Virus record (IMG/VR): IMGVR_UViG_3300027763_000029
DNA: 64,000 bases
Strand: one strand, 5' to 3'
Source: a virus
The position numbers and the translations under genes were made by a program. Below are positions 19,230 through 53,132 of the stretch, piece by piece (the first letter of the stretch is position 1; each line of letters starts with the position of its first letter). Under the pieces are notes generated by a model. It did not search any database. It saw only the letters and a list, made by a program, of their open reading frames with translations, and was not told the origin of the DNA.

Positions 19230-21254
19230 TTAATCATCTAAATAAGATCTTGATAAATTACAGGTTTGATATACCCATCCTATTGTTCTAGTATATCTTC
19301 CTTCCGTCGGATTCCAATTAGAATTATCCTGAGAGACGAAAACTTGTCCAGTATCATTGGTGCGAGTAGCGAAAGTACCAAAAACAGAAGACTGTCTATC
19401 ACCAAATGGCTTGAATCCTTCTATAATAGCTTGAATAGTTTTATATGTGGTACCACCAGTATATAGTGGACACTCACTATTACTCAACATAAATCCATTA
19501 AAACTACTGGGAGGTACAACAACAATTTCAAAAGTTAAATCTTTTCTGGAACTTGTTTTTGCTCCTAAAGATTGTAATACTGGACCTAATCGACGACCAA
19601 GAACAAAAGCCTCATTAATAACGTCGATAGGTCCTGTCTGATTAATGGTAATATTTTCAGCTAAAACCCCACTTATAAATCTAAACTTATCGTTGAATTC
19701 ATAAGAATAGCTAATACTTCCTTTTCTTGGATCATGACCTTCATTTGTAGATACTGGAATGATATTTAATAATTTTTGTTTGCAATATGTCGGATTTCTT
19801 GGTGGTGGCTGAGGATTAGCTGTTAAAGATACATAATCATCTGTACTTTTTTCAAAATTTATAGGATAACTAGCTCTTCTATATAAATATGGTTTAATGT
19901 CATTTATCCACCCACTAAGAGCATTCTCGTATTTTGTACCATAAAAATTTTGATCATAAGAATTGGTAGATCCTGATACATTGAGGATGCCTTGAGATAG
20001 ATTAGTAGCTGATGCTCCATTATTCTTAGAAAAAGACAAATCTATATAACCGCTGGTTGGAATTAAACCAGAAACTCCACTCATGATTGGTAATTGTGCT
20101 ATCATTAATCCTTTAATACTTCCTTGAACTCTTACAGTTCTAACAAATCTCTCATCTGTTGAAGCTTCTACAGTATAGTCCTCTACATACTTTATTCCGG
20201 TTGGCATAGCTAACCAGGTTTCGTTAACTTCATATGATCCTGCTGTTTCACTAAAATTTATTGTTCTTAGATGATTGTATAAAAATATTTTATCGAAATT
20301 TGATATAGTACTTATTGATGATGAAGCGAAGTGTACCCCACTATTATTATTGTTACCAGCACTATAAGGTTGGGCTAATCTTTCTGATACCCAATTTTTA
20401 GCATTTAAGTAAGCTGATACATTACCTTGCACGCACCCTGTTCCACTCGGGCCAGTTATTCCTTCAGCTGAAATTTTGCGAGATAATTTAAATTGTGGTA
20501 TATTAGTAAAATTTAATTGACTAATTCCATATGGATTTGGTTCACCTTGATTTGTTGGAGATGGTATCAAAGTGGTTGTTGATGTGTTATTGCTTCCATT
20601 AGATGCTCCTGGTGCAGATAATCTTGTTGGGGCCAGATTAGGATTATGATATTCTGATTTTTGAGTAACATCTCTAGCAAATGAAGCATAAACGTATTCT
20701 TCCATGGGTTCTAACGACCAAGAATCAGATCCGGCTCTGATAAGATATCCACTAGAAGCTGGTTTACTATATTCTAAATCAATAGTGTAGTCTGCGGAAA
20801 AAATCCAGTTATCATTAGTTTTATTTATGTTGAAAGAATTAACTTTAACCCCGCATCCTTCGACAATAGGATTGCTGCCGCATTTTATTTGGAAAGTACC
20901 AAAACCATTATCTTTAGAAAATAAATCAGTCATTTTTTGGGAGGCATCTAAGATAACGGCAGTTCCAGTTCCATCAGGATTAGTTCCTACCGTATTGGAA
21001 GTTCTTAATATCTTACCATTAAGTGTTACTTTAGTTGTTGTACTAAATAATGTTCCTGCTTCTGATCTATTAAAAACTGTTGATAAATCAACTAATGGTA
21101 CTGGTCCAGCTATATCATCTAGTCCGCTACCGTTATAATATACTCTAACAGGTTTGGTACTAGTAGTAGAACCATTTGAATATGGACCCCCTGCTTGAGC
21201 AGAAAACAGAGGATTATAATCATCTTCATGATTAGATGGGCTACTATATACCAT
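19230..21254 (-). CDS. Tail structural protein (distal-tail/tube-fold-like)
   Basis: Repeated beta-rich segments ending in YTIDLEY, YEVNETW, YSYEFND and YTRTIGW; directly upstream of the hub-like gene; AGGA Shine-Dalgarno. Confidence 0.45.
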   Translation of the reverse strand: MVYSSPSNHEDDYNPLFSAQAGGPYSNGSTTSTKPVRVYYNGSGLDDIAGPVPLVDLSTVFNRSEAGTLFSTTTKVTLNGKILRTSNTVGTNPDGTGTAVILDASQKMTDLFSKDNGFGTFQIKCGSNPIVEGCGVKVNSFNINKTNDNWIFSADYTIDLEYSKPASSGYLIRAGSDSWSLEPMEEYVYASFARDVTQKSEYHNPNLAPTRLSAPGASNGSNNTSTTTLIPSPTNQGEPNPYGISQLNFTNIPQFKLSRKISAEGITGPSGTGCVQGNVSAYLNAKNWVSERLAQPYSAGNNNNSGVHFASSSISTISNFDKIFLYNHLRTINFSETAGSYEVNETWLAMPTGIKYVEDYTVEASTDERFVRTVRVQGSIKGLMIAQLPIMSGVSGLIPTSGYIDLSFSKNNGASATNLSQGILNVSGSTNSYDQNFYGTKYENALSGWINDIKPYLYRRASYPINFEKSTDDYVSLTANPQPPPRNPTYCKQKLLNIIPVSTNEGHDPRKGSISYSYEFNDKFRFISGVLAENITINQTGPIDVINEAFVLGRRLGPVLQSLGAKTSSRKDLTFEIVVVPPSSFNGFMLSNSECPLYTGGTTYKTIQAIIEGFKPFGDRQSSVFGTFATRTNDTGQVFVSQDNSNWNPTEGRYTRTIGWVYQTCNLSRSYLDD

Positions 21255-21287
21255 ATTTTTCCTTTAGAAGTTCCCTTTATTCTGTCT

Positions 21288-21524
21288 TTATGCAAATTGG
21301 TAGTAGAAAGATAGTCTTTTTGTGGTTTCCTTAGCTACAAAACTAAAGCTTTCTGGGAAAATTATTGATTGTGTATTATTCATATTTTTAATGAATACTG
21401 TATATTTACGACCAGGAATCAAATCTTCAACATCAACCATAAGCGAACTTGGAATATGACAAGAATCACTTGATTGATTGATTATATTTCCATCTGGGAA
21501 TGATATTGTTAAGTCTTTGACCAT
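21288..21524 (-). CDS. Small protein consisting of the N-terminal part of the Cys-bracketed Ig-like module B
   Basis: SCHIPSSLMVDVEDLIPGRKYTVFI...IFPESFSF aligns with the first part of module B in the 48.9-58.4 kb genes; strong TAAGGAG Shine-Dalgarno and its own GTGTAT motif. Confidence 0.7.
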   Translation of the reverse strand: MVKDLTISFPDGNIINQSSDSCHIPSSLMVDVEDLIPGRKYTVFIKNMNNTQSIIFPESFSFVAKETTKRLSFYYQFA

Positions 21525-21547
21525 ATTCTGATACTCCTTAAGAATAA

Positions 21548-21554
21548 ATACACC
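21548..21554 (-). promoter_or_regulatory. RGTGTAT motif, putative late promoter
   Basis: ATACACC on + strand, 24 nt upstream of start 21524. Confidence 0.55.
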
Positions 21555-21613
21555 AAATCGGATTCGTAATTTAAAGGCTATTTTATATTCGCTACTATAT
21601 CTATAGTATCTTA

Positions 21614-24274
21614 TTAGCTTGGAACTGTCAATTGGACAATATTACTATTTATACCATATTCACGAGTTCCACCGCCTGCCTCTACAACTACATCTGTTTT
21701 AACTATGCAACGATAGTATTTACCATTATCATTAGCGTAGGTGAGCCCAGTAAGATTTAATGTGCTAGAGGTTGCACCAGGAATATAAGTTAATTGCGCA
21801 TTTCCGTTTTGTTGTGGGGTGAGGGACGAACCCCTATACCATTGATATGTTGGAGTTTCTGTTCCTACAACGGTTACAGGATAAGAAAATGTTGCATTTC
21901 CTCCTACTGCCGTTTGTGGTTGTAGGATAGGTTGTGTCGAGTAAGGATAGTTACTAGACGTATCATTAGCAATAGCCCAAACCTTTAATCCTACTAAGGA
22001 ACCATTGTTACCATCGATATTAAATGTAAAATAGTCACCAGCAACAACATCTCCAACATATAATCCACTGCCAGTAGTATTATTTAAATTAATCAAATAA
22101 GTACTTTCTCTAATCCTACTATAATAATCAATAGGATCGTTTTTCCTGATATATGTTTCAGTATAGGTATTTTCGTCTTGTGAATAACTAGAAGAATTCC
22201 ATTTAATATGAATTTTACCAGGAGCACCTATTGATAAACATAAACTAGTATTAACTGGAAATGATGCTTTTCTAAATGCAGTAGCTTCAGAAACTCCAGC
22301 ATATCCACTATCCCATCCACCACACGCAGATGCTCCGATAGCAGAAAGAGACGCTATAATAGTTGGTATAGCATATATTTCGACATTAGAGAAAAGTTGA
22401 GATCCATCTTTTTCGCTACTTTCAATTGTTATTATATCATTAGCAACAACTGAGAATGTGGTAGTCCTGTTTGTGCCGGTCGATACGCTATACATTGAAG
22501 TTTTAGATCCTCCAGTAGTCTTGTATACTATAGCAGAACCGTCAGCGCCATCTTGATCTAAAAAGTCAAATTCCACAGTAATAGCAGCGGCGGCATTAAC
22601 TGTCCAAGAATAGCGGGTCAATCCATTAACATCAATATCCACAACAGAGTCTGCTCTAAAATAATGACTAGATTCTGTTCCGATTCCTGAGAAAGACGAT
22701 GTATTTCCACCGCCATTAGAACGAGAAATTGTTAAAAGTCTAGGAGGTGGAGATGAAGTTGGTGTTAATGTTTGTGTAGCTGTTAATGTTGGTGTTGAAG
22801 TTACTGCTGGAGTTATGGTTTGTGTTAATGTTGGAGTAACTGTTGTTGTAGCTGTAATGGTTTGAGTAATCGTTGCTGTTATTGTTGGGGTAGCTGTAAC
22901 TGTTGGAGTAATTGTTCCTGTTACTGTTTTTGTTACCGTTACTGTTGGAGTAATTGTCGAAGTAATAGTTGGAGTAACTGTTGAAGTAGTTGTTGGGGTT
23001 GGACTAACAGGGGTAGCTGTTACTGTTGGAGTAGCTGTAGCTGTTACCGTTTCTGTCACTGTTGCCGTTGGGGTTGCTGTTTGAGTGGCTGTTGGTGTTG
23101 GACTAAGAGGAGTAGCTGTTACTGTTGGAGTAGGTGTTACTGTTGGGGTGGTAACAGCAGTTTTTGTTGGGGTTGGCGTAACCGTCGAAGTTCGTGTTGG
23201 GGTTGGTGAAACAACAATAGATCCGTTTCCTATACCGTCAGCACTAATGATTGATGGAGGACTATCGCTTTGGGTAGGATAAGTCCAATAGCCAGCATTT
23301 AGACCTCCGCTCTTATAATATGCTGCCTTATACCATTCATCTTCTGTTGGAATATGATATTTTGCACCACTATTCTTATCAACTGTTCCACCACTAGTTT
23401 TTCCATTTAAAGTATATGCTCCATCTTCTGTGGTAGTATTATCTTGCAATCCGCTAGGCTTGTTATTATGTATCCAGTTTGCGTATCTTGCAGCATCAAA
23501 CCAGCTTACATATGCTACTGGTTTATTACCATAATTTGCTTTAACACTATATAAATAGCTACCATTATTCCCGCTACGAATTATGCCTCCTCTTGATATT
23601 CCCATTTCAGCTTTATATAGACCATACTCATCTGTTGAAGCAATAGAATTTAAAAAATCTTTATATTCGTTATTTGTCACAAGATATTTTTGTATGAAAT
23701 AATCATACCTAACTCGCCCCTTTTCTCCACCAAAAAAAACAGCATTGTCTTCAAGAGTATTTAGAAATCTAGTATCAGCAATATTGTTGCTGTCTTCAAC
23801 ACTAACAAAATTAGGTAAAGAATAAATATTAGAGATACTAGCTAAACGAAAGCCATTATTTGGAGCCGATGAGTTTGGATTACCAATATTATTATGCAAA
23901 GGACTTAAAACACTGTATCCTACCCCCAACCAAGATCCTCCCCTAACATAACCTGAAGGACTAGCAAGCCCATCCAAGCTATTCCATTCATTTAGCTGTC
24001 CACCCATATCATAAGTGCCATATGCTCCTGGCCCCCCATTAGTTCCAACACTTGTTAAATTACCTTCGAATCCATCTGAAGGATTATCCCATGTGGCACC
24101 CCTCCAGAAATTAGCAGTATTTGCACCAATAATAAGTTTTGGGGTATTGACTACATAATTGGTAAAAGCTCCTTGACCCATAGAATTAACTGCTGCTACC
24201 CTTACTCTATAGGATGCTCCATTTTTTAACTTGCTTAGTGTATAGGCCGTATTTGAAGTATTAACTATGGTCAT
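21614..24274 (-). CDS. Modular appendage protein: half-FN3, permuted FGE/CLec domain, Thr/Pro stalk, two beta modules, Ig domain
   Basis: N-terminal YTLSKLKNGASYRVRVAAVNSMGQG; FGE motifs [34 protein letters not shown]; C-terminal Ig PTYQWYR...YYRCIV. Confidence 0.75.
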   Translation of the reverse strand: MTIVNTSNTAYTLSKLKNGASYRVRVAAVNSMGQGAFTNYVVNTPKLIIGANTANFWRGATWDNPSDGFEGNLTSVGTNGGPGAYGTYDMGGQLNEWNSLDGLASPSGYVRGGSWLGVGYSVLSPLHNNIGNPNSSAPNNGFRLASISNIYSLPNFVSVEDSNNIADTRFLNTLEDNAVFFGGEKGRVRYDYFIQKYLVTNNEYKDFLNSIASTDEYGLYKAEMGISRGGIIRSGNNGSYLYSVKANYGNKPVAYVSWFDAARYANWIHNNKPSGLQDNTTTEDGAYTLNGKTSGGTVDKNSGAKYHIPTEDEWYKAAYYKSGGLNAGYWTYPTQSDSPPSIISADGIGNGSIVVSPTPTRTSTVTPTPTKTAVTTPTVTPTPTVTATPLSPTPTATQTATPTATVTETVTATATPTVTATPVSPTPTTTSTVTPTITSTITPTVTVTKTVTGTITPTVTATPTITATITQTITATTTVTPTLTQTITPAVTSTPTLTATQTLTPTSSPPPRLLTISRSNGGGNTSSFSGIGTESSHYFRADSVVDIDVNGLTRYSWTVNAAAAITVEFDFLDQDGADGSAIVYKTTGGSKTSMYSVSTGTNRTTTFSVVANDIITIESSEKDGSQLFSNVEIYAIPTIIASLSAIGASACGGWDSGYAGVSEATAFRKASFPVNTSLCLSIGAPGKIHIKWNSSSYSQDENTYTETYIRKNDPIDYYSRIRESTYLINLNNTTGSGLYVGDVVAGDYFTFNIDGNNGSLVGLKVWAIANDTSSNYPYSTQPILQPQTAVGGNATFSYPVTVVGTETPTYQWYRGSSLTPQQNGNAQLTYIPGATSSTLNLTGLTYANDNGKYYRCIVKTDVVVEAGGGTREYGINSNIVQLTVPS

Positions 24275-24309
24275 TTAAATTTCCTAATAAATCATATTGA
24301 TAATAAATA

Positions 24310-24316
24310 ATACACC
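24310..24316 (-). promoter_or_regulatory. RGTGTAT motif, putative late promoter
   Basis: ATACACC in the intergenic gap, 36 nt upstream of start 24274. Confidence 0.55.
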
Positions 24317-24325
24317 TATCAAAAA

Positions 24326-26275
24326 TTAACTAATAAACGTGAAACCTGACGGAATAGAACCTACTGACATATTAATACTAATTTCTGCAAGAGTATTGCC
24401 AACCCTATAAGGACAAGCTGCTGGAAATAGATCTCCAATTAGTGTGGAAATATCTATGCCACCAGATGCCGATGACGGATTAGCACCAGCATCGTTATTC
24501 CAATAGCCGGCAGTAACTCTAAACCAGATTAAATTATTAACTCTATCAACCGCAACGTCTATAGTATTATTTGAGAATCTAGCTATTGTATTTATGACCC
24601 TATTGTTTAAATAAACTGATCCATCATCATAGTAGCCTATAGAAGCATTTCCATCCGATGAACCCAAATAAGAAGATAAATTAGAATTTATATTACCAAC
24701 TCCAACACCAGCATATCCAGAAATACTATTGCTTACAAACATACTAAATATAACTTTTTGACCAGATAAGATAGCTCTATTTGTTAGAGTAGTAGTTTCT
24801 GTAGCAGCATCAATACTAATATTTGTATATGTATATGTAGCTGTTTTATTGTTAGGATTAATAGAGATATATGGTCCTGTATGATTAATATCAAAAATAA
24901 ATGGTATTATTGATTTACTAGGTGTTACTGTTGGTGTTGCGGTGAGCGTGGTGGTTGGAGTTGGGGTAAATCCTCTAGTTGATGTGATAGTATTAGTAGG
25001 AGTGGTAGTAGGAGTTATTGATTTAGTAGGGGTGACTGTTTGTGTTATTGTTGGTGTTGGTGTTGGAGTAGGTGGTCCAATAACTGATGCTCCAACGGTA
25101 TTTTTAATCATAATGTAGTATTGGTCTTTTTCTAGACTTACTAAACTATTATAATTTCCGTCTATAGCATTTTGATTAGTAATCCAAGTGGAAAATCCAT
25201 TCTTATTTTTATTAAGACCATGAATACATGAAACGCTATTAATCCAATCTGCCGGATTTAAATCAATATTCGGTCCAGTATATTTGATAATACTAATTGG
25301 TTTATTTAAAATTACTGACGAATTATTAGAGTATGGAGCTGTTTGCTGTAATAAGACATAATCTGGTCTTTCGCTTTTGCTAATAACAAGATAGTTTTTG
25401 TGGGGTTCTAAAATCTCTAATGAATTAGATTGAATATCTGGATCATACTCGACATATCCTTTTCCATCTTCTGATATTCCAATTATTTTTTCTATTTGAG
25501 ATAATACATTACCTCCTAAACTATCAATATTTATAGACTCTATGCTTGATGATGATGGATATGCTTCTGTCGGAATGTCGATAGTTGAATTAGTATACCC
25601 TCTACTAAATCCATTAGTTATTCTAAAATCATCGATATAACCTTTAAAATAAGCATTAGCACCAAAATAATAAGTCATAAAACCCATCGATTGATCAAAA
25701 GAATATTCAGTATTATCAATTATTGTATTGCTTCTTTTTATACCATCAATATAAAGTCTATTTGATGATCCTGATCTGGAAATAGCAAAGTGCTGCCACT
25801 TATTATTTAATAAATAGCTGTTTAGATTTGTAAAACTTAATTGATAATTTACTATTCCAGCACCTAGTTTCAATTCTCCTGATGAACAATTTAAATAAAT
25901 ACCATTATCAGATCCTGATATTGGCTTTAGAATATATCCACTATCTGTAAAGTCCGCCTTCTTCATCCACCATTCGATAGCAAAATCTCCAGTTAAAGAT
26001 ACTGATTGTGTTCCATTTAATGTAAAGTATCCATTTGAATAAGGTCCAAGATTAGGATTATAAAAACTTCCAGAACCAAATACCTTATCAGATGAAGATA
26101 TACCTGCTGTAGAATTAGCCGTAACAGAACGATTATATATTGATGAATCAGTAAGCGAATTTCCACTTAATAATAAAGCAACTTGAGAATAATATGGATC
26201 AGTATTACCAGTATAAGTAAAAAAACAATATTTGCTATTAATTAGTAATGGTTTTGGATAAAAGCAATTATTCAT
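24326..26275 (-). CDS. Modular appendage protein: module A interrupted by a LamG-like domain, second module A, Thr/Pro stalk, SPRY-like domain
   Basis: LamG WQHFAISRSG...GYIDDFRIT; SPRY-like IDVAVDRVNNLIWFR...W...ANP. Start at 26275 avoids overlap with the upstream gene (the ORF track start is 26305). Confidence 0.7.
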   Translation of the reverse strand: MNNCFYPKPLLINSKYCFFTYTGNTDPYYSQVALLLSGNSLTDSSIYNRSVTANSTAGISSSDKVFGSGSFYNPNLGPYSNGYFTLNGTQSVSLTGDFAIEWWMKKADFTDSGYILKPISGSDNGIYLNCSSGELKLGAGIVNYQLSFTNLNSYLLNNKWQHFAISRSGSSNRLYIDGIKRSNTIIDNTEYSFDQSMGFMTYYFGANAYFKGYIDDFRITNGFSRGYTNSTIDIPTEAYPSSSSIESINIDSLGGNVLSQIEKIIGISEDGKGYVEYDPDIQSNSLEILEPHKNYLVISKSERPDYVLLQQTAPYSNNSSVILNKPISIIKYTGPNIDLNPADWINSVSCIHGLNKNKNGFSTWITNQNAIDGNYNSLVSLEKDQYYIMIKNTVGASVIGPPTPTPTPTITQTVTPTKSITPTTTPTNTITSTRGFTPTPTTTLTATPTVTPSKSIIPFIFDINHTGPYISINPNNKTATYTYTNISIDAATETTTLTNRAILSGQKVIFSMFVSNSISGYAGVGVGNINSNLSSYLGSSDGNASIGYYDDGSVYLNNRVINTIARFSNNTIDVAVDRVNNLIWFRVTAGYWNNDAGANPSSASGGIDISTLIGDLFPAACPYRVGNTLAEISINMSVGSIPSGFTFIS

Positions 26276-26288
26276 AATATTTATGTCT

Positions 26289-29200
26289 CTAGTATATTGG
26301 CTCAAACTGTATCATTGAGAAGGTATTTGCAAATAGACCTATTCCAGGAGAATTTGATCCATAAAGAGATATTCTATTTATCATAGTAGGATAACGATTT
26401 AATGTGTCAAAATAGAACTCCCTTGATGTTGTACTAATTGTTAGTTGAGATTGTGATATATAAAAACCTCCACTAAAAGTATTTACATATATTGACTGGC
26501 CACCATTTACTGCATCTTGCCATCCTGTGGTAAGAGGACCAAAAGCATACTTAAAGCCTCTTATAGGAGTCCAAACAGGGAAAACAACAGATATCTTAAA
26601 ACCGTCTCTTTCTGTGTGAGTATTTATATATGTATTATAATCTTGAGTAGATAAATATCTGTATCTAGTATTGTCATTTAAGAAACTCAATAATGGAGGA
26701 TATGTTGTTTGGTTGACAACAGATGCTCTAGACATATCTGGATAGTTCGATTCAACACTGCTCCAACCATATCCGTCTATTATTGGTTGTCCAAAATTAT
26801 CTAAATAATAGGGGGTGGGGTAGTAGGGCGGGGCTACTCTGTAGATAGGAACACGAACACCAAAACTAAAACTCTTCTGATAAAAATATTCATTAACAAT
26901 ATAAGGTCTTGGAGTGCGTGTTGGGGTTGATGTTATTGCTGGCGTTGGCGTGAATGGTGGTGTTGGAGAAACAGATGGTGTTGGATATGGTGTTTGAGAT
27001 AGAGATGGGGTTGGTGTTGGTACATTTAGATAGTCTACAACTAACTCAACAGGCATTGTATTTGATATGTCGTCAAATATTTGTAAAACAACTATACCTC
27101 CATTATTACCCACCGAATCATAGTAACCAACAAATAGATTATCTTCCAAATTACAAGTATTACAATTCTTCTCAGACGCTATTGCTATAGACGTTACTAT
27201 TTTACCTGGAATATTTAGATTTATGATATTAACTATTTGATCAGAATCTGTATTGATGCATGCTACTTTATTGGTGTCTAATAAAACATATAGTATATTT
27301 TTATGGTATTCCATAGCAACTGGTTTTGCATTATCTGCGAAAGGTACACGATATAAGCTATTAGCAACCCAGTTCTCTACAAAAACTTCTTGAGTATTAT
27401 TTTGATTGGCGGTCTCTGATAGTACATGAACGCCTGGATTATCTCCTATATCAGATATATATACTTTTCCGTTAGTTCTCATATACGAAGAATTATTACC
27501 ATAGAAATATTTTGCATTATTATTCGGACAAAGAACTTGGCCTGGTTCACTACCTTCTGGCAACATGCAATACCTATTAGATATAGCATTTGTTCCATAT
27601 ATAAAAATAACTGGTACAAGTTTCCATATTTTTGTAAGATCTGGTTGAGCAAAAAATGCTCTTACAAGAGCAGCAACATAAACACATCCCGCGGTTGAAC
27701 TATAGTCCAAACCCCTAGCATAAGTACCACCAATAGTATTTCTTATATTAGTTTTGAAAAACTCACTATTAGTAAATGGTCTTTCTGGATCGTTAGAGTA
27801 GAAAAAAGATCCATAGTCTATTCTGCAGTCATTACTGGTATTATTGCTGGAACAGAAAGCAGATTCTCCTGGTAGCCAATATTGTCGATCCAAACTTAGT
27901 CCTACAGTTTTATTATTTGTTCCCATCATTGTTTGTTGAAGAGCAATTCCTACGTAGCCTGCATTATGATATTGCCCGGTTGGGAATCTGGAGTCTTCTA
28001 GATTACTAATATCGAAAGAATTAGAACCGTATGGTGCACTTATTCCAATGAAATTTGTTCCTTTGTTTTTAGTGTATCCACCAGTTGAAGAAAAAAATGT
28101 TGGGTCAGTAGTACCATAAAGTAATCCATATGATGTCGAACCAGTTTCGTCAAAAAATTTAGCAGAGGTCAATCTGTGTATTTTCTTTTCCGTTAGTCCA
28201 TAATAAGAACCTATATATAGACTATTATTTATTCTATATGCATTATTAAATTTTATTACATCTTTAATTTCACACCTTAATAATCCTCGACCATATTTAG
28301 GACTAAAGTTTAAAAGATGATTATCCGGTACACCAACATAGCTTGAAAGGTGTTTATCGGAAGCTATCGCTTGAACACCACCACTAACATTTATAATTCC
28401 TCTTAATGAAAATTGAGTAATATTTATTGGGGTTGGAGAAGGACTTGGTGTTGGATATGGCGTTGGTGTTTTGGTTGGTGGTAAGGTTGCTACTATTCTG
28501 GACGTACCATCTCCTACCGCATTAGCACTTACGCAATATGGAATATCATCGGTCTGAGTGGCATAAGACCAATAGCCAGCGTCGGTACCTATTGCTTTAT
28601 AATATGCTGCTTTATACCATTCATTCCAGGTAGGAATATAATATTTTGCTGTGGTATTTCTGGATCTATTACCAGATGTTGCACCACTTATACTGTATGC
28701 TCCAGTCTCAGTGGTACTATTATTCTGAGGTCCTATTGGTTTGCTATTATGCAACCAGTTTGCGTATCTTGCAGCACTAAGCCAGCTAACAAAATTAACA
28801 GGTTTATTACCATAGTTTGTTTTAGTCGAATATGAGTAGCTTCCATCGCCTCCTGATCGGTTTATACCTCCTAATGATCCAGACATATTGGTATCGTATA
28901 CTCCATATAAGTCTGTGATTGCAATAGCATTCAAGAATTGAACATATTCGCTATTAGTAATCTCATATTTTTGTATCATATATGAATATGGAACGCTTCC
29001 TTTTCTGAATCCTGTAGTATCAGGAGCATTATTTGGATCTCCAACGGACATAAAATTAGAATAATTATTAGGATTAGTTAAAGTTGCTAAACGAAAGCCT
29101 ATATAAGAACGTCTATCATTAGATCCGGTGCCAGATATTAAGTTTTTATTATTAATTGAAGTGTCTGAATAATTACCCCCAGTATAACAATATGAGCCAA

Positions 29201-32200
29201 TACTAGGCGATTCATCGATCCATTCATCTATATTACCATCCATATCGTAAACGCCATAAGCACTTGGTCCGCCGTTAGTTCCAACAGTAGTTAGATTTCC
29301 GCTTGTGCCATTCCAAATAGCACAGCGACTCCAGTTTATACTATTAGCTCCAATTATACGCGGAGTTAGTGTTGGAGTTATTGTTGGCGTTGATGCTGGC
29401 GTTCGTGTCGGTGTTGAAGTTACGGTAGGCGTAGATGTTATAGCTGAAGTTTGTGTCTGAGTTACTGTTGTTGTTGACGTTACTGTTGGTGTTTTTGTTG
29501 GAGTTTGAGTTGCTGTTGATGTTCTGGTTGGAGTTGGTGTTGGCGTTGCAAATGAACCATCTCCAATACTATTAGATATTATCCGATCTGGCTGACTATT
29601 GCTCTGTGTAGCATAAGTCCAATATCCCGCATTGGTACTGCCTCCTTTATAATACGCGGCCTTGTACCATTCATTTTCGGTTGGAATATAATATTTTGCT
29701 CCAATTTTTCTTGATACAGTGTCTGTTCGTGCTGTTTTACCATTTAAAGCGTATGCTCCATCTTCAGTGGTACTACTATTTTGAAGTCCAGATGGTTTAC
29801 CATTATGCAACCAATTGCAGTAACGAGCAGCATCAAACCAATTCACATAGTTTACCGGCTTGTTGCCGTAATTATTTTTTACAGTATAAGAAAAGCTTCC
29901 ACTAGCTCCTGATTGGATTATCCCTCCTGGAGTACTAGCATAACCCATCAGATAAAAATACAATTGATATGTATCAGTTGCAGCAATAGCATTTAAAAAT
30001 TCAGCATACTCACTATTAGTAATTTCATATTTACCTATATGATACTCATATGCTACTGCTCCCCTACCAATACTTCCATACGTATTCAAAGTATCAGCAA
30101 GATTATTAGCGTCTCCAACGACTACAAAATTAGAATAATTATAAGGATTATTAGAGCTTGAGATACGAAAACCATACTGACTGGTCTTTGAAACTGGATT
30201 ATCGAATCCTCCTCCGTAAGATGATGTGAAAGGAATAGTAATATTAAATGCTCCACCCCTTATCTGCTTATCGGCATATGTATTGGTGCCGTCATAATCG
30301 TTCCATTCTTGAACATTGCCGTCCATATCATAAGTGCCATAAGCGCTTGGTCCACCATTGCTTCCAACCGAAGATACATTTCCATTTTTATTATCCCAAA
30401 CTACATAATTGTTGTAGTTAGCAGTATTAGCACCAAAAATACGCGATGTTGGTGTTGGCGTAGGTGTTTTTGTTTGACTAATTGTTGGCGTTATAGTGGG
30501 TGTTATAGCAGGTGTCTGAGTCGTTGTTGGAGTTACTGTATTGGTTGGTGTTAATGTCACTGTTGGGGTGATCGTTGATGTTTTTGTAGCTGTTATAGTA
30601 GCTGTTTGTGTGGCTGTGACTGTTGGGGTTATTGTTGATGTTACTGTTGAAGTAAGGGTTGGAGTAACCGTTAATGTTCGAGTAATGGTTTTTGTTATTG
30701 TCTGAGTGTTTGTGGGAGTTGTCGTAGAGGTAATTGTTGGCGTTATCGTTGAAGTAAGAGTGGGAGTAGAGGTTAATGTTGGAGTAGTAGTTTTTGTTAT
30801 CGTAGGAGTGGTTGTTGGTGTTATTGTTTGGGTTCTTGTTGGACTAATAGTATTAGTTTGGGTTATGGTTGTAGTAACTGTGGATGTAATGGTTGGAGTA
30901 ACAGTTTGAGTGAGAGTTGGAGTTGGACTAATTGGAGTAGCTGTGATAGTTGACGTAACGGTTGGAGTAACTGTCTGAGTGGACGTTGGTGTTGGGCTAA
31001 TTGGAGTAGCTGTAACAGTTGGAGTAACAGTTGGAGTGAGGGTTCTAGTTGCTGTTGATGTTACTGTGTTAGTTGGAGTTACGGTTGTTGTTGCTGTTCT
31101 TGTTACTGTTGGAGTAAATGTTGGACTCACAGTATTGGTGGGCGTTATTGTTGATGTTATAGACGGAGTAACAGTTGAAGTAGGCGTTAGTGATTGAGTA
31201 ACAGTTTGAGTTACCGTTGAGGTTGTTGTAACAGTTGGAGTTGCTGTTGATGTTACTGTGTTAGTTGGAGTTACGGTTGATGTTGCTGTTATTGTTACTG
31301 TTGGAGTAAATGTTGGACTCACAGTATTGGTGGGCGTTATTGTTGATGTTATAGATGGAGTAACAGTTGAGGTAGCGGTTAGTGATTGAGTAACCGTTTG
31401 GGTTACTGTTGATGTTACTGTAGTAGTTGGAGTTACGGTTGATGTTACTGTGTTAGTTGGGGTTACTGTTAATGTTGGCGTTATTGTTGATGTTACTGTA
31501 TTGGTTGGAGTTAATGTCGGAGTTACTGTGTTAGTCGGAGTTAATGTGGGAGTTTCTTTGTTAGTTGGTGTTATTGTTGTAGTTGCCGTAACTGTTGGCG
31601 TTATTGTGGAAGTTGCTGTATTAGTTGGTGTTATTGAGTTTGTTGGCGTAAAAGTTGGAGTTATCGTTGGAGTAACCGTTGAACTGACCGTTACTGTTGG
31701 CGTAATTGTTGGAGTTACTGTCGGAGTTTTAGTAGCCGCAGGAGTTGATGTTGAAGTTGGTGTTCTTGTTGGAGTTGTTGTATTGGTTGGTGTGGGGGTT
31801 GGACTTGCTAATGGACCATAACCTATATTATTTACATTTATCCCATATGGAGCACTATTACTCTGAGTAGCATACTGCCAATAGCCAGCGTCGGTACCTC
31901 CTCCTTTATAGTAAGCTGCTTTAAACCATTCATTTTTAGTTGGTATACAGTATTTTGCTCCAACTTTTCTCGTTGTACTAGTTCCACTACCTATTCCATT
32001 TAGAGCATAAGCTCCATCTTCAGTGGTGCTGCTATCTTGAATTCCATTTGGTTTGTTGTTGTGCAACCAGTTTGCATAGCGAGCAGTATCAAACCAACTA
32101 ACATAATTAACGGGTTTATTTTCATAATTATTTTTAGTTGAATAAGTATAACTGCCACTAATTCCTGATCGCAATATGCCTCCACCAGCAGCTGCCATAT

Positions 32201-35200
32201 TAATATCATATAGTCCATATGTATCAGTTGTTGCAACTGCGTTCAAAAATTCAGCATATTCACTATTTGTTACTTCGTATTTCTGTATATAATATTGATA
32301 TGAAACAGTTCCATTGTTAGTATAAATATCTGGACTATTATTAATGTCTTCAATACTCAAAAAATTTGAATAATTATAGGGATTACTCAAACTTGTTAAA
32401 CGAAAACCTATATATTGTTGGCTATTTGCTGGATTTTCTGATATAGTAGTTTGATTATTTGCTGATAAAATATTAATAAAATCACCACCAAGTATTGTAC
32501 GAAGATAGGTATTAAAAATACCTTCGCTCCATTCCTGAACATTTCCGTTCATATCATAAGCCCCATAAGCGCTGGGACCACCGTTACTTCCAACAGTAGT
32601 TACGTTTCCATTTCTACCATCCCAAACTGCTGAGTTATATGTATTAGCAGTATTAGCTCCTATAATACGTGGAGTTGGTGTTGGTGTTGAAGTTAATGTT
32701 GGAGTAATTGTTGCTGTTTTGGTAATCGTTGGTGTTAGTGTTGAAGTTGCTGTAATGGTTGGTGTTGCTGTTGACGTTAATGTTTTTGTTGGCGTAACCG
32801 TTGATGTTAATGTTTTTGTTGGCGTAACCGTTGATGTTAATGTATTCGTTGGAGTAAAGGTTGGACTTATGGTATTGGTTGGTGTTATTGTGGGAGTTAA
32901 TGTAGATGTTGATGTTACTGTGGGAGTAATTGTAGAAGTAGGGGTTGGTGTTGATGTTGATCCAACTGTTGGTGTTACTGTTGTAGTCGCCGTTATTGTT
33001 GGAGTAACCGTTTCAGTTGGCGTTACTGTTGGAGTAACAGTTTCAGTTGGTGTTACTGTTGGAGTAGCAGTCAATGTTTTAGTGACTGTTACTGTAACTG
33101 TTGGGGTTACTGTAGCTGTTGGGCTTTCTGTAATTGTTGGAGTTACCGTAGAGGTTACGGTTGGAGTAGGAGTTTCTGTTTCTGTAATAGTAGGAGTAGG
33201 AGTTACCGTTGAAGTTGCCGTAACTGTTGGGGTAGCAGTTTGGCTTTCCGTAATAGTAGGAGTTAGTGTTGGTGTTACTGTTGGAGTAGCAGTCAATGTT
33301 TCAGTGACTGTTACTGTAACTGTTGGGGTTACTGTTGTAGTCGCCGTTATTGTTGGAGTAACCGTTTCAGTTGGCGTTACTGTTGGAGTAGGAGTTTCTG
33401 TTTCTGTAATAGTAGGAGTAGGAGTTACCGTTGAAGTTGCCGTAACTGTTGGGGTAGCAGTTTGGCTTTCCGTAATAGTAGGAGTTAGTGTTGGTGTGAC
33501 TGTAGATGTAGCAGTAACGGTTGGTGTCACTGTAGTTGTTGGACTTGGCGTTAATGTTTGTGTCTTAGTGGTGGTAATAGTTGGTGTTGGAGTTAAGGTC
33601 TGTGTTCTAGTAACAGTTGGGGTTAGTGTATACATATCTCCAATATTAAAAGCAAATCCACTACTCTCATCTCCGGCATTTCTAGTTCCATAATCAGCAG
33701 AAACAGATATTTTTGATCCTTGGGTTGTCGTAAATTTCCAATTAACGCTCTCATAAGTCCAGCTTCCAAAACCATTTAAATCTCCCTCATTATATCCTCC
33801 GATATCTTGTCCAGAACTAAACTGAGATCCATTAGAGGAACTCAAAACTCCGCTTGGATTATATAGTGTTCCGCTACCACTAAAATCTGAAAATACTAAG
33901 GATCCAGCCGGATAAGTTCCATTACTAAGATCAGGATCAATAGAAGTTCGGTTTCCTGGTCCTATGTTCCTCTCATTACCAGCACCAAATATCTGAAGTC
34001 CTTGTAAATTAAATATAGAAGAAAATTCAGGATCAATAGAACCAGAAACAGTATAGGAAAATCTACTAAATCCATACCTTGTTGTGTCATAGCCAGGAGT
34101 AGACATCTTCATAACCACAGATAATCCAATATTAGGATATCTTGGATTCTGTAAGTTAGATACTTCAAGAGTAATATCTTGGGCCGGAGTTGGTTGTCCA
34201 GCTTTGATATCAACAATATTCCAATCTAAATCGTTTAAAAACCATGAGCCAATTCTTCTTCCTTTATGTACAATCAAACCGTCAGCAGAATTTGTAGAAA
34301 CCGAAGAAACCGTATAAAGAATTCCATTAGTAGCACAATCTGATCCATTGCCAGATAAACTAGCACAAATAGGCTCCGGAACAATATCACTCTGAGTAGC
34401 ATACAGCCAGTATCCAGCATCTGTTCCTGACACCTTGTAATATGCTGCTTTGTACCATTCGTCTTCTGTTGGAAGATTATATCTTGCATTTGGATTTAAA
34501 TCAATGAAATCTCCATCAGTAGCACCAAAAAGAGAGTATGCTCCATCTTCTGTGGTGGTCTCGTCTTGAATTCCACTTGGCTTACCGTTATGTAGCCAAT
34601 TGCAGTATCTTGCAGCGTCAAACCAATTTGTCCAAATAACCGGCTTATTTCCATAGTTTGATATTGTGATACTTGATGCATGTTCCGCATGGAGTCTGGT
34701 GGTTCTTTCAGCGTATGAATAATTCCCGGACGTTCCGGTTCTTGTTATTCCACCAACAGCATAATTATTACTTGGATATGACACACCCATATTAGTATTA
34801 TATACTGAATAAGTATCATCTGATGCTATAGCATTTAAAAACTCAATATACTCATCGTTGGTGGTTTCGTATTTTTTAATCTTATAGTCATAATTTACTG
34901 ATCCAAATCCTGTCAAATCTGCAAGATTACCAGAGCTATTAACGTCCACAAAATCATTAAATAAATAGGGATTAGATTTACTAGCAACACGAAATCCTGT
35001 ATTTCCACTATCATAATTAGGATGAACTAGAGCTCCACGATATAATGAATTTATAGTACTAGCATTACTAGACCAATTAGCTCCTCCAGATTTTATTGAA
35101 GAATCATTTTTCCATTCTAATGTATTACCACTCATATCAAAAACGCCATAAGCACTAGCTCCACCAGCACTACCAACGGTAATAACGTTTCCATTTCTAT

Positions 35201-37550
35201 CATCCCAATTAGCACATCTATTAAAATTAGCAGTATTTGAGCCTTTTATATATGGTAAAGGAATATTATTTGGACCACATAGATCTCTAAAGCCAACCCC
35301 AAGAGGGTTTTCGGGAGTAATACTTGTTACTAAATCAACTGTAGTTAATTGTCCCGTGATTAAAGATATGGTATACCATTGCCCGGTTTCAAATGATGAA
35401 GTATAAAGTATAGAATTGGTGCAATCAAAAGAATTTTGTAGTCTAACACCCATTGAGCTTTTGATTATATTGAAAGAAGACCTCGGATTATTAATGTCTA
35501 ATGAATAAAAATATCCAGTATTCACATTTGCATAAAGTATTCCAGTATCTTGATTAATAGAAATATCACCAAAAGTATTATCGGCACCAATACTTATATT
35601 AGTATTTATTGCCTCTATTGAGAGTATGGTAGGAATTTCTGATGAATAATCAAAACGAACTCTGATTAGGGTTGTTCTATCGTAATAAGAAACACTAGTA
35701 GCACCCATAAAAAAGAATACTGAGTCATCATAGTAACAAGCGCCAGATGGACCCACTGTCATACCTAATGATCCAAGAGTGCTTACATTGCCTAAAGATA
35801 CAAATTTATTATCCAAATTCCAAAAGTATAGTTCTCCAGTATTACCTGGCTTGAACATGAATAAATGTTTTCTTATTGGATCAAAAGACATAGAATTAGC
35901 AGAAGTAAAACCGGTATCAAATACTGGAATATAAGTTCTATCTGCTGTATTTATCTGCCATATAATACCATTATTATCTACTCCATATAAAAATGATAGT
36001 AGTTCTTCGTATTCAATAACATAATTAGTAATTGGTAAACCGCCAGTAAAACTTGGAGCATCCCAAGATAATGCTAATTCGTGGGTGGCTGAAGTTGCTG
36101 TTAAATGAATAGGAGCGTCTGGAATTACTGCTGGTGTTGGGGTAACTGTGGCTGTTGGAGTTAGTGTGCATGAAGCAGTCTGGCTAATAGTTTGCGTTAT
36201 TGTGCAAGTATTGGTGGGTGTTAAGGTACAAGTTTCTGTTGGAGTATTTGTATTTGTTGGAGTGACTGATGCTGTCGGAGTAAGCGTACAACTATTAGTA
36301 GGAGTAAAAGTGGGAGTATTGCTTTGAGTAAGAGTTGGTGTAACTGTAGAACTTTTAGTTATAGTGGGTGTTACTGTAGAGGTTTCACTAACGGTTGGAG
36401 TTAATGTAGAGGTTGGAGTAATGGTTGGAGTTATTGTTAGTGTGGCTGTAGATGTTGGAGTAACAGTTAATGTTTCTGTGGGTGTTTTAGTGACCGTTAC
36501 TGTTAATGTTGGTGTTACAGTAGACGTGGGGCTTATAGTTGGAGTTAATGTTTGTGTTAATGTGGGTGTTGGTGTGTTTGTTGAAGTTACTGTTGGGGTA
36601 ACTGTTTTAGTTGGAGTTAGAGTAGCAGTTGGTGTGCAAAGATTATCTTGGTTATAATAACAATATGGTCCACTTCTATTTGAAGATAATGAGACACAAA
36701 CTGGATCTTCATTGTACTGCGTAGCATATTTCCAATATCCGCTATTTCTTCCGTTACCTTTATAGTAAGCAGCCTTAATCCATTCATCTACAGTTGGTAT
36801 CCAATACTTAGCACTATCATTCTTAGATATTATGCCATTACTAGCGCCATATAAAGAATACGAACCATCTTCTGTTGTGCTATTATTTTGAGATCCAGAT
36901 GGCTTATTATTATGAAGCCAGTTACAATATCTAGCGGCACTATACCAACTGATATAGTTAACAGGCTTATTACCAAAATCTCCAACAGAATATACATAAA
37001 GTCCATTATCTATAGTTCTTTGTATTCCCCCATAAGTTCCAGCCATATTAGTACTATATAAATAGTATGTGTCCGATGCGCTGGCAACAGAGTTTAAAAA
37101 GACCGAATATTCATAATTAGTTATAGCATATTTGCTTATTAGATAAAAATAACCTATGCTTCCTAAACCTTCGTTATCTGGAGAATTTTCAATATCGTTT
37201 ATCTCAACAAAATTATTAACACTATCTAAATTTGAACATACTCTGAATCCAAGCGTTGATGATATTGATGATGGGGTTGAATATGGTCTATTTTTTAGAT
37301 TAGCTAATGATGAGGTATAATTACCTCCAATATACGTCTTATTAAAGTAAGATACTGTTGTATCTGTCCATTCATCAATATTTCCATTTTGGTCATAAGT
37401 GCCATAATAGCTTGGACCACCATTAGTTCCGACCGTGCTTACATATCCTCCACAATTATTGAAGTTAGCATTATTAAATCCTCTATCGGGATTAATTACT
37501 ATTGCGTTGGATATATAATTATTATCGGTCATTTTACAGTATCTCTCCAT
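26289..37550 (-). CDS. Giant modular appendage protein (3753 aa): five permuted FGE/CLec domains, half-FN3, beta-propellers, very long Thr/Pro stalks
   Basis: Five copies of the GGPSAYG.YDM.GN..EW...GFR / KYE.TN / KPVN.VSW / PT..EW.KAAYYK motif set; true start may be 37532 (GGAG upstream). Confidence 0.8.
31047..31430. repeat. 192-bp near-identical tandem duplication in a Thr/Pro stalk
   Basis: 31047-31238 versus 31239-31430 align closely, diverging near the unit end. Confidence 0.85.
32770..32843. repeat. 30-bp tandem repeat x2.5 ([10 protein letters not shown])
   Basis: GTTGAYGTTAATGTTTTTGTTGGCGTAACC repeated. Confidence 0.85.
33160..33497. repeat. 116-bp exact direct repeat, offset 222 bp
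   Basis: 33160-33275 is identical to 33382-33497. Confidence 0.85.
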
Positions 37551-37608
37551 GCATTATTCATAATAAGCTCTTTATATTTATATGCAAATTGGTAAAATTG
37601 TATTTTTA

Positions 37609-40600
37609 TCATATAAATGGCCCAATATCGGTATACGATACAAGATAGTCATCGTATCCTCCTCCTCCAACGATTAATTTACTTCCATTTGAAATCAATC
37701 CAAATCTGGGAGCTATTGTACTTATACTTTTTGCTATAACTCCAACATTTCCATTAGAGATAGAGTCTGTAATATCAATCGATATTAATTTATTAGTTGA
37801 ATTATTTACTGATGAATTATAAAGATTCATATATGCTCTATCATAAATAGTATTAACATGTATTCCAGCAGCGATAAATTCGCATCCAACAGGTAGTGTA
37901 ATAGTATTACTAATAGTATCGGTAGCTGTATTTATTATGACCAATCCTGATTGACCCATACTATAATTTGGCATTGGAATAAATAGTCTATTATTAGTAT
38001 CTAAAAACATATTTGAATGACTAATTAAGCTAGGATAATTGAATAAACCAGTTGGCAGATTAATAAATTTAGTTATAGTATTAGAGTTTATATCGTAAAC
38101 ATATACTACTCCATCTCCTAAAATATATAGCTTCAATCCGAATTTGACTATATTTCTAGCAGATACTCCTAGATTTAAACTAGCTGACTCAGTTAGCGGA
38201 GTATTAAAAAATGCAGATACATCATAGGACTTAATAAATCCTCCAACACTAGCATATAATTTACTAGAATTGCTATCATATTTGATAAAATCAAAAGTTC
38301 CCAAACCTGAAAAAGAGGTAGTATAATTTGAATATGATGTTGAACTACCAATACAATGAATAATAAAATTATCTTTAGCAATAAATACGGATCCATTCGT
38401 TCCGACAGTTATAGGACATGAAATCCCGGTTCCTAATCCAATTGATCTTATGCTGAATATGTTTGATGATACATCCAGACAAAATAATACTCCTCCTGTT
38501 GCTCCGGCTAATCCATGTACTCTGTTGGAATTTCCTTCAAAAACAAGAGATTGAATACCATATCCTGGAAAGTATGCATATGGTGCCACCTGAGTAAAAA
38601 CCGTTTGTGTTGATGTTGGTGTTGCTGTTAATGTTGGTGTTGGTGTCTTTGTGGGAGTGATTGTTGAGGTTATTGTTGAAGTAATGGTTGGGGTAATGGT
38701 TGGAGTTAGAGTTAAAGTTTTTGTGGGAGTAATTGTACTAGTTATAGTTGGTGTAACTGTTAACGATGGAGTTAATGTTTGAGTTACTGTTGGTGTCGGG
38801 GTTGGAGCAACCGTTATGGTGTTCCAATCACTAACCGAAATACCGGTACCATAATTCAAAAGTCTAATTCTCCAAGAGACAATACCATTAGAGTGACCAC
38901 GAATAAGTGGAATTGCATAACTAATAGGATTATAGTCAAATAGTTTCCATTTGATATTGTCAGTTGAAAACTCTAATATATAGTATCCATATCCATCTGT
39001 TCTTCGGTCCATATTCGTTATTGTTATGCTATTAGCTGTTATATTAGTTATTGATGGTGGGATAAGATTTTCTGGATTAATATAAGTATGAGTATTTGAC
39101 CAAGGACTAACAATATCTGGAGTAATACTTTTCCAGCATTTTACTCTCCATATTTTTGATTCAGAATACGTAATATAAGATGTGTTATTGCTGTTAGATG
39201 AAACTGTTCCATTTCCTTCTAATATCCAATTAGATCCTCCATCCGAAGAAGAGTTTAGTTCAAAAGCTACCTGAAAATCATTGACATTAAATATAACAGC
39301 AAACGAGGAAGTACTTACAGATACCAGTGTAGGAACTAATGGAAGAGGAGTTGTAGTAGGAGTCGGAGTTGTTGTACTAGTAGCAGTTATCGTTGGAGTT
39401 TGAGTTACTGCTGGTGTTCTGGTTGGAGTTGGAGTTGGAGTTGCTAATGGTCCGTATCCTATACTGTTGGAGCTAATACAGGTAGGGGCCGTATCACTTT
39501 GGGTGGCGTATTTCCAATAACCAGAATTAGTTCCATCACCCTTGTAGTAAGCGGCCTTATACCATTCATTAAAATTGGGAATAAAATATTTTGCTATAGT
39601 ATTTCTTGATATATTTCCAGAAATTGCGCCACTTAGATTGTATGCTCCATCCTCAGTAGTACTACTATCTTGAAGTCCAGTTGGTTTATTGTTGTGCAAC
39701 CAATTGCAATATCTCGCGGTACTGAGCCAACTAACAAGATTAATCGGCTTATCATCATAATTTGTTTTAGTTGAGTAGGAATAGCTACCGTTAGTTCCTG
39801 ATCTTATTATACCTCCTCTACTTATACCCATATTTGCGTAATACAGCTCGTACGTATCTGTTGTAGCTACAGCATTCAAAAAATCCCTATATTCATTATT
39901 AGTTACTGGATATTTTTGAATCATATATGTATATGAGACATTTCCTTTTCTGGAAGGTTTAGTATTAGACTGATTATTAGGATCTCCAACGGATACAAAA
40001 TTAGAATAATTATTAGGATTAGTTAAAGTTGCTAGACGAAAACCTATATAATCGCCGAGGCCCCACGAGGCACGCCCATATATTCCTACATCATCGCCGA
40101 ACTCTGACAAAGAGCTTAAATAGCTACCACCCACATAATTGTAAGAGCCAACGCCAGGTACATCATCAATCCATTCAAAAACATTACCGTTCATATCATA
40201 AGTTCCATAAGCACTTGGTCCACCATTAGTGCCAACAGTAGTAACATTACCATCTATGCTATCCCAATCAGCACAATAGTTAAAATTAGCAGTATTAGCT
40301 CCTGCCGGCAGAGCATATCTAACTGGAGTAGAAGTTGGGGGTGGGGTTCTTGTTGGAGTAACTGTTAAAGTTGATGTTACTGTTGGTGTTAATGTCTTTG
40401 TGGGAGTTCTTGTTGGAGTAATTGTTGAAGTGACCGTTATCGTTGGGGTTATTGTTGGAGTTTTTGTTATTGCTGGTGTGTTGGTGGGCGTTACTGTTGG
40501 TGTTGGTGTTGGCGATGGAATCATTCCATCTCCTGAAATATCAGCACTAACACAAACTGGATCACTATCATTCTGAGTAGCATATCTCCAGTAGCCAGAA

Positions 40601-52670: not shown

Positions 52671-53132
52671 TTATGCGAAGTATGTCGTGTCGTTAGTGAA
52701 TACTCCTGAATAGTTTATTCCCCCAATACTAAGTCTGTATTGTGTATTTAAATAAGAATCAACAAATACTATTCTGGCAATTTCTACGGAATTCTGAATA
52801 TTTCCTTTTCTTATAGAGGAAATTCCAATAGTAGCTGAGGCTGCCTTCTTATTGAAGTTGAGAGTTGCACCACCCGTGCAAGTAAATGTTAATCCATCAG
52901 AGCTATATGTTCCAATAGTATTATTTGTACCAGCTATAGTTATGCTTGTATCAAAAGTTGATAGAGGTGTTGGGGTTGGTGTTGGGGTAGTGGCCGGTGT
53001 TGGTGAAGGCTGTTGTCCTACAGTATTTTCATTACATATAATTGTCAATATATCTTCTACTATTCTGCATGGTTCGCTAGGCGATACGTGTTCTACGGCT
53101 GATACTTTAAGTAATAGATAATTATTGCTCAT
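52671..53132 (-). CDS. Protein starting with the C-terminal part of module B, then Pro/Thr linker and module C
   Basis: YLLLKVSAV...PC...LTIICNE aligns with NILKLTVY...GC...INIYCND in 48961..50910; DTSITI...SDGLTF...YSGVF module C. Confidence 0.65.
   Translation of the reverse strand: MSNNYLLLKVSAVEHVSPSEPCRIVEDILTIICNENTVGQQPSPTPATTPTPTPTPLSTFDTSITIAGTNNTIGTYSSDGLTFTCTGGATLNFNKKAASATIGISSIRKGNIQNSVEIARIVFVDSYLNTQYRLSIGGINYSGVFTNDTTYFA

Follow-up and report, generated by a model that had tools for sequence, protein, structure and literature searches.

A single fibronectin type III (FN3) domain is divided between two genes of G000, an uncultured freshwater phage known from the IMG/VR record IMGVR_UViG_3300027763_000029, of which we analysed a 64,000-nt stretch (the window). 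The front half of the domain lies within a 3753-aa protein (the 'giant'; 26289-37550, minus strand) and the back half opens an 886-aa protein (21614-24274, minus strand), 11.7 kb away and with a further gene, for a 659-aa protein, in between. The two pieces are real DNA, they are complementary and show no decay, and other phages carry such halves with the same breakpoint. We propose, with a probability that we put at about 65%, that they are the halves of one FN3 sandwich and act as a non-covalent branch joint between the two proteins, the binding itself being predicted.

Both halves were recognised by the Pfam fn3 profile (PF00041, 84 positions) when their peptides were scanned alone with hmmscan. 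Giant residues ~477-516 (36003-36122, minus strand), which end in ...ITNYVIEYE and correspond to strands A-B-C, matched with an E-value of 4.9e-4 (20.7 bits), and residues 4-41 of the 886-aa protein (24152-24265), part of a back half with strands C'-E-F-G that spans its residues 1-45 (24140-24274, minus strand; MTIVNTSNTAYTLSKLKNGASYRVRVAAVNSMGQGAFTNYVVNTP) and precedes an FGE domain, matched with an E-value of 5.3e-7 (30.2 bits). Measured against the Pfam gathering score of 25 bits, the back half thus lies above and the front half below, and neither appeared in whole-protein Pfam scans of the giant and the 886-aa protein at an E-value of 0.1. The front half also matches positions 2-33 of an in-house phage FN3 hidden Markov model (HMM), built from 57 intact phage domains that were found through the F-strand scan described below. 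The seven strands of the fold do not occur together in one polypeptide: the giant holds fn3 profile positions 2-38 and the 886-aa protein positions 43-81, without overlap, so that only the C-C' loop (~6-8 residues) is absent. Summed, the halves score ~51 bits, inside the range of 38.8-60.8 bits given by intact FN3 domains in related phages. A whole-genome fn3 search found no other FN3 domain or half apart from a weak match in a 78-aa gene, and by sequence neither half therefore has a partner in cis. The first-pass annotation of this DNA, made from the letters alone, had placed a front half at about 36004-36122 of the giant and a back half at the start of the 886-aa protein, had called the two complementary and non-overlapping, and had seen the giant pass into a propeller after the front half; the profile positions confirm the first three of these claims, and a structure model combined with Foldseek matches, given below, confirms the last.

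The 886-aa gene carries start signals of its own, with a TAA stop codon abutting its ATG and an AGGAA Shine-Dalgarno sequence 7 nt upstream (24281-24285), within a 51-nt intergenic spacer (24275-24325, minus strand). The exact 886-aa protein is found on 4 contigs, and in JGI samples 3300009184 and 3300027734 the gene order (giant, 649, 886, 78, 674, by length in aa) is kept. Junction DNA is present in 12 runs of freshwater metagenomes, which come from 8 studies and date from 2017-2024. Identical contigs from X2 and X4 span both 36004 and 24274, as do contigs of a diverged strain, X5 (2-4%); over the 566 nt that bridge 24274 this strain has 25 differences, and over the 2536 nt that bridge 36004 it has 42. 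Places where X4, X5 or X8 give no cover of the window carry no weight either way. In codons 1-109 of the 886-aa gene, the half domain included, X5 differs from the window by 11 synonymous and 3 non-synonymous changes, which indicates that the gene is under purifying selection; the 51-nt spacer has 3 changes, none touching the ribosome-binding site.

On the reading that we favour, the giant would offer strands A-B-C between a Pro/Thr-rich (PT) linker and the propeller, and the start of the 886-aa protein would supply strands C'-E-F-G. Both proteins would be made in the infected cell, and the back half would insert beside the front half, with strand F pairing with C and strand E with B, to rebuild the sandwich. 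The 886-aa protein, which is of a lectin type, would then be hung on the giant, the rest of the giant forming one arm and the 886-aa protein the second, and binding would be the route by which the 886-aa protein reaches the virion. As to history, an old cut common to two other phages described below, G004 and G006, would have been followed in G000 by growth of the part after the front half to 3237 residues and by the intercalation of a gene.

A prediction of the complex, which the first-pass annotation had put forward as a check, rebuilt a canonical FN3 domain from the two peptides. The input was giant residues 462-560 with residues 1-60 of the 886-aa protein, in three runs and three controls, and the interface score ipSAE was 0.64 in all three runs against 0.00 for the best control; of 78 solved complexes, 51 attain the mark used for this score, as do 2 of 108 mismatched pairs. 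Contacts agreed to at least 84% between runs, and the partner had a confidence (pLDDT) of at least 72. Predicted strand C (giant 510-516) pairs with strand F (886-aa residues 22-29) and predicted strand B (giant 492-494) with strand E (886-aa residues 10-13), both as is canonical for FN3, in which A-B-E and C-C'-F-G form the two sheets. This outcome may reflect the model's memory, since the fold encoded by this split gene is a very well known one, and what the prediction shows is that the halves still resemble one FN3 domain, not that they bind.

The same split is found in other phages. The F strand of the back half was back-translated and scanned against IMG/VR, giving 90 matches, of which five are true gene-starting back halves, each with a stop codon just upstream. 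A gene start of this kind, with the methionine at HMM position 41-47, is seen in the 886-aa gene, in g1309 and g631 of G004, and in gene B of both G006 and G007. G004 is a 140 kb phage and G006 a complete phage of 238 kb with terminal repeats; each encodes a protein 45% identical to the 674-aa core protein of G000. In G006, gene A encodes a 399-aa protein with matches to PHROG minor tail proteins, and its front half ends in ...LDISQYIIEYQ and is followed by a PT linker and a small C-terminal domain. Gene B begins 49 nt past gene A with MTTINTNSPNRSYTITGL (MTTINTNS...) and continues into a LamG domain, not an FGE domain. The breakpoint is that of G000 (IEYQ versus IEYE, the full G000 form being IEYE, ..., MTIVNT), and only ~0.5 kb separates the halves, which indicates that the cut is older than the G000 arrangement. 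G004 g1309 starts with MPTINTNSANRSYTITGLTNDVTYRVRVAAVNSIGVGPFTDYVLATP (MPTINTNS...YRVRVAAVNS), matches fn3 positions 43-80 with an E-value of 3.6e-7, and likewise has LamG next and not FGE; back halves also stand at the gene starts of g631 and g284, and g1590 carries two tandem orphan front halves with a proline linker after each. With the window's back half, those of G004 g1309 and G006 gene B each share 27/47 residues (57%), and the front halves of G000 and G006 are identical at 18/42. G007, an unrelated fragment of 58% GC that lacks a 674-like gene, has an analogous adjacent pair, in which gene A ends with a front half, an Ig-like domain and a C-terminal domain, and gene B starts with the back half MPSNATNRTVTGLVNGQEYLFRVAAVNS.

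Tallied by genome, orphan front and back halves number one and one in G000 and two and three in G004, and occupy genes A and B in G006 and in G007; the halves lie in adjacent genes in the last two and not in G000. Among the ~60 phage FN3 domains that we collected, the best matches of each split half are other split halves. Both halves are thus conserved in relatives, with front and back halves and the same breakpoint in G004 and G006, and these comparisons indicate that the split is old, that it has been held at one loop in functional genes, and that front and back halves are paired in each genome checked. The same FN3 loop holds a whole LamG domain nested in one chain in G004 g1185 (L085:9891-13448) and g1590 (L085:5103-9875), which shows that the loop tolerates large inserts. 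Other searches gave little: the INPHARED phage collection has no match to the 886-aa protein, a junction-peptide search of IMG/VR returned one weak match only, and a metagenome scan with the 659-aa protein, near-identical records aside, gave no intermediate relatives.

The closest relative, G001, whose 674-aa protein is 80% identical to that of G000, has a different arrangement at this place. One of its open reading frames (ORFs) is a fusion of a giant-type N-terminal FGE tail and PT linker, a DUF642 domain, an 886-like FGE domain and 886-like C-terminal domains. The tail of the giant's N-terminal FGE domain is homologous to the start of this fused ORF, and parts of the 886-aa protein are 51% and 43% identical to parts of it. 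In G001, modules of the 886 type are thus attached covalently to the same N-terminal part that bears the front half in G000.

Taken together, four lines of evidence argue for docking: the split recurs in G004 and G006 with different domains behind it, with an analogous pair in G007; within the phage FN3 domains, the split halves are most closely related to one another; the complex prediction rebuilds the canonical C-F and B-E pairing; and G001 joins 886-like modules covalently to the corresponding N-terminal part. Trans-complementation that docks one protein on the other, as the first-pass annotation had proposed, is therefore the best-supported reading, and it is not proven. Its stated alternative, that one 11.7-kb insertion into a formerly intact FN3 domain left the halves behind as relics, is disfavoured as the origin of the split, G006 having the same cut with ~0.5 kb.

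Several points weigh against docking. Success of the complex prediction is expected for any recently split FN3 domain and so cannot separate function from history. Both halves lie inside frames that are needed anyway, which makes frame integrity uninformative and leaves the absence of missense decay as the only observation that counts. The strain data for the back half itself (2 synonymous and 0 non-synonymous changes in X5 over its 45 codons, 24140-24274) are too small to prove anything for the half domain. G004 has three back halves to two detected front halves. Elsewhere the pairs are adjacent, whereas G000 has its two halves at a distance of 11.7 kb, on either side of another gene. G001 lacks the split, the DUF642 domain occupying that place in its fused ORF, and the 886-like protein of G002 begins with an unrelated 40-residue peptide without fn3, which implies that 886-like proteins can manage without the half domain. 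To the eye this G002 N-terminus looks faintly FN3-like, and it was rejected as a candidate since it gave no fn3 signal.

The rival that survives best is that the split is a functionless scar of rearrangement, in which an FN3 domain was cut by module shuffling in a hypervariable fibre cluster, its halves persist only because they sit in obligatory frames, and the 886-aa protein works, or enters the virion, in some other way. We consider this unlikely, yet serious enough to be kept in view, given the extensive shuffling of the cluster and the two relatives that are without the split. G000 and G001, at 80% identity of the core protein, differ in gene order and in modules, and the G002 protein has no FN3 half. 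The propeller, too, is a mobile module. In L069 (L069:10001-10825) it is a gene of its own, 274 aa long and immediately ahead of the 674-like gene, whereas P0092 has it at the C-terminus and P0123 and P0152 carry it nested within an FGE-sulfatase domain. Alignments to the propeller homologues P0041, P0092, P0123 and P0152 begin at most 4 residues from the junction. The appearance of a true relic in this group can be seen in G001, in a copy of the 886-type C-terminal Ig-like domain behind the stop codon of the fused ORF (L013:3873-4243), which has an in-frame stop and a frameshift and is still 50-75% identical to the window's copy. The FN3 halves show no such breakage and no missense decay, their summed score lying among those of intact domains. 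A scar would also have to account for a breakpoint and start codon that recur in G004 and G006, where identity is 57% for the half domain against 45% for a core protein, for the different domains behind the back half, for the independent pair in G007, and for the clustering of split halves among phage FN3 domains.

We think it very improbable that a site-specific deletion, splicing or translational bypass removes the 11.7 kb at the DNA or RNA level and so yields an intact FN3 domain in one chain. A tyrosine recombinase gene does lie beside the fibre genes of G004. In G000, however, the halves share no repeat that could serve as a recombination site, positions 21000-38000 contain no Rfam intron or other Rfam family, and the frame stays open for 3237 codons past the front half. 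Among the joints listed from the metagenome data, none connects 36004 to 24274; every one listed falls in PT-linker repeats and probably belongs to other organisms. Queried with the back half (in the near and longer length classes) and with the junction region, a 5.8-billion-protein collection yielded only proteins with several FN3 domains, of a generic kind, and no close relative in which the domain is fused or unsplit. It is this combination of no repeats, no Rfam family, an open frame and no fused protein that makes joining so improbable.

Completion in cis, by which another segment of the giant would complete the front half while the back half rests against the FGE domain of its own protein and the two proteins never meet, seems just as improbable. 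Nothing speaks for it directly, the model of the giant having spanned residues 465-810, and there is no other FN3-like back half in the genome. That model, made by AlphaFold with a multiple sequence alignment of 6 sequences (a single-sequence run gave a pLDDT of 33), has propeller residues 518-765 at a pLDDT of 80-95, with Foldseek matches to YWTD/Kelch, LRP4, LRP6 and Pizza propellers. Beside this confident propeller the front half is unstructured in cis (pLDDT ~35), in a region that the alignment did not cover.

An assembly artefact or strain chimera can be dismissed: the record is a metagenome-assembled contig, but independent contigs from several studies and years, including those of the diverged strain X5, bridge both junctions, and misassembly, which the first-pass annotation had wished to see checked, is excluded as far as contigs can show. 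Two further candidates were rejected. A split caused by a mobile element or homing endonuclease finds no trace in 24275-36002, which holds only FGE-sulfatase, LamG and propeller modules and has no flanking repeats. A split intein or self-splicing intron has neither a Pfam intein family nor an Rfam intron to show for it, and residue +1 past the front half is Glu.

The source record is a 151,782 bp virus with a CheckV completeness of 100%, and the very large fibre-like genes of the window, all on the minus strand, lie downstream of a tail module with PHROG matches to baseplate wedge and virion structural proteins. From its N-terminus, the giant consists of an FGE-sulfatase/C-type-lectin-like domain (residues 1 to ~306; 36633-37550, minus strand; Pfam PF03781), a PT linker (residues ~307-476; 36123-36632, minus strand), delimited from the translation and from PT repeat families, the FN3 front half, a predicted six-bladed beta-propeller that starts at the junction (residues 517 to ~790; 35181-36002, minus strand), and a remainder that by Pfam and a paralogy table holds four further FGE-type lectin domains, PT linkers and other domains (26289-35180, minus strand). 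The gene between the halves encodes a Laminin_G_3 protein (Pfam PF13385) of 659 aa, or 649 aa from its ATG (24326-26305, minus strand), which has a 62% identical homologue in G001. Behind its FN3 half, the 886-aa protein has, by Pfam, an FGE-type lectin domain, a PT linker, beta-rich domains and a C-terminal Ig-like domain (21614-24139, minus strand).

The PT linkers of the giant vary between strains (at 30234, 32776 and 33564-33573), through deletions of 3 nt and 30 nt in X5 and through small insertions or deletions in X2 and X4, and the JGI copy of the giant is 3747 aa long instead of 3753 aa. Long plus-strand ORFs at 31450-31821 and 32719-33693 lie opposite PT-linker repeats and are most likely antisense artefacts of repetitive codons.

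Other domains of these clusters may be divided as well. The 78-aa gene (21288-21524, minus strand) resembles the first two thirds of an Ig-like 'module B' in a 649-aa protein encoded at 48961-50910, and the start of a 153-aa gene (52671-53132, minus strand) resembles the last strands of the same module. The two genes may thus form a second split-domain pair in the cluster, as judged from these resemblances. The 78-aa gene is kept intact in G001 (L013:7290-7532), its equivalent in L069 is a fuller 110-aa module (L069:9646-9978), and homologues of the 153-aa gene in relatives are weak matches. In G004, the end of g1185 resembles the first LamG strand (...KTRLLLHLDSN) and the start of g1590 resembles the remaining LamG domain, and g285 (L085:17822-18679), which is tyrosine-recombinase-like, lies directly upstream of a gene opening with an FN3 back half. 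G008 (L098 / L177) has the same gene-starting back half as G007 (MPSNATNRTVAGL...) in an ORF of only 70 aa. This copy may have decayed or been cut short, and its record, 39% complete, yielded no front half.

Half-domains of this kind could be a general plug-and-socket device of large environmental phages, with an embedded front half as the socket and a gene-starting back half as the plug, so that any protein with a matching plug would fit, and tandem sockets such as those of G004 g1590 would then build multi-armed appendages. For this wider proposal we would offer slightly less than even odds. What is peculiar to G000 is the distance, with an arm of 3237 residues and a whole gene between socket and plug. 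If the device is general, receptor-binding arms could be swapped between phages by carrying a 45-residue plug, and the 11.7-kb separation in G000 would mean that socket and plug need not be neighbours.

If the halves bind, they would constitute a natural two-gene joint made by protein-fragment complementation. By this means phages could assemble receptor-binding appendages that are branched and modular and could swap arms with no need of gene fusion, and the joint would explain how orphan fibre-like proteins without a recognisable anchor domain enter the virion. It would also supply a rule for annotation, in that a gene starting in the middle of an FN3 domain would be read as a docking partner and not as a truncated pseudogene, and a small natural plug-and-socket pair (~40 + 45 residues) for protein engineering. 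We found no paper on an FN3 domain split between phage fibre genes, and literature searches on strand complementation in phage fibres, or on FGE-sulfatase together with FN3 in phage tails, returned nothing relevant.

The closest known mechanism is that of human host cell factor 1 (HCF-1), in whose Fn3nc (SAS1) module half an Fn3 repeat on one fragment and the remaining strands on another (Fn3n and Fn3c) interdigitate into complete Fn3 folds, which keeps both fragments joined non-covalently (bioRxiv 10.1101/577890). As in HCF-1, G000 has half a domain on one chain and the complementary strands on another. HCF-1 is made as one precursor and then cleaved, whereas the G000 halves are encoded by two genes, each with its own stop codon, ribosome-binding site and ATG and with another gene between them; moreover, they belong to fibre-like lectin proteins of a phage, and their binding is predicted. 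Fragment complementation of FN3 has also been engineered: Dutta, Batori, Koide and Koide (2005, Protein Sci 14:2838, as cited in PMC11666773) reportedly found that two fragments reassemble with high affinity, and that system is a laboratory construct of human FN3, unlike the natural pair considered here.

Chaperone-usher pili use donor-strand complementation, in which an incomplete Ig-like sandwich is completed by N-terminal strands of the next subunit and a non-covalent link results. Pili require a chaperone and an usher for this, and the donor gives a single strand, whereas the G000 half would donate four strands, half of the domain, and Pfam scans of the neighbouring genes found no chaperone or usher family. 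In the branched tail-fibre and tailspike systems of G7C, CBA120 and K1-5, one receptor-binding protein is hung on another via N-terminal adaptor domains. These are whole docking domains that fold by themselves, unlike the two halves of one domain in G000. If the proposed joint is real, it would extend to phage fibres a principle so far represented by human HCF-1 and by pili.

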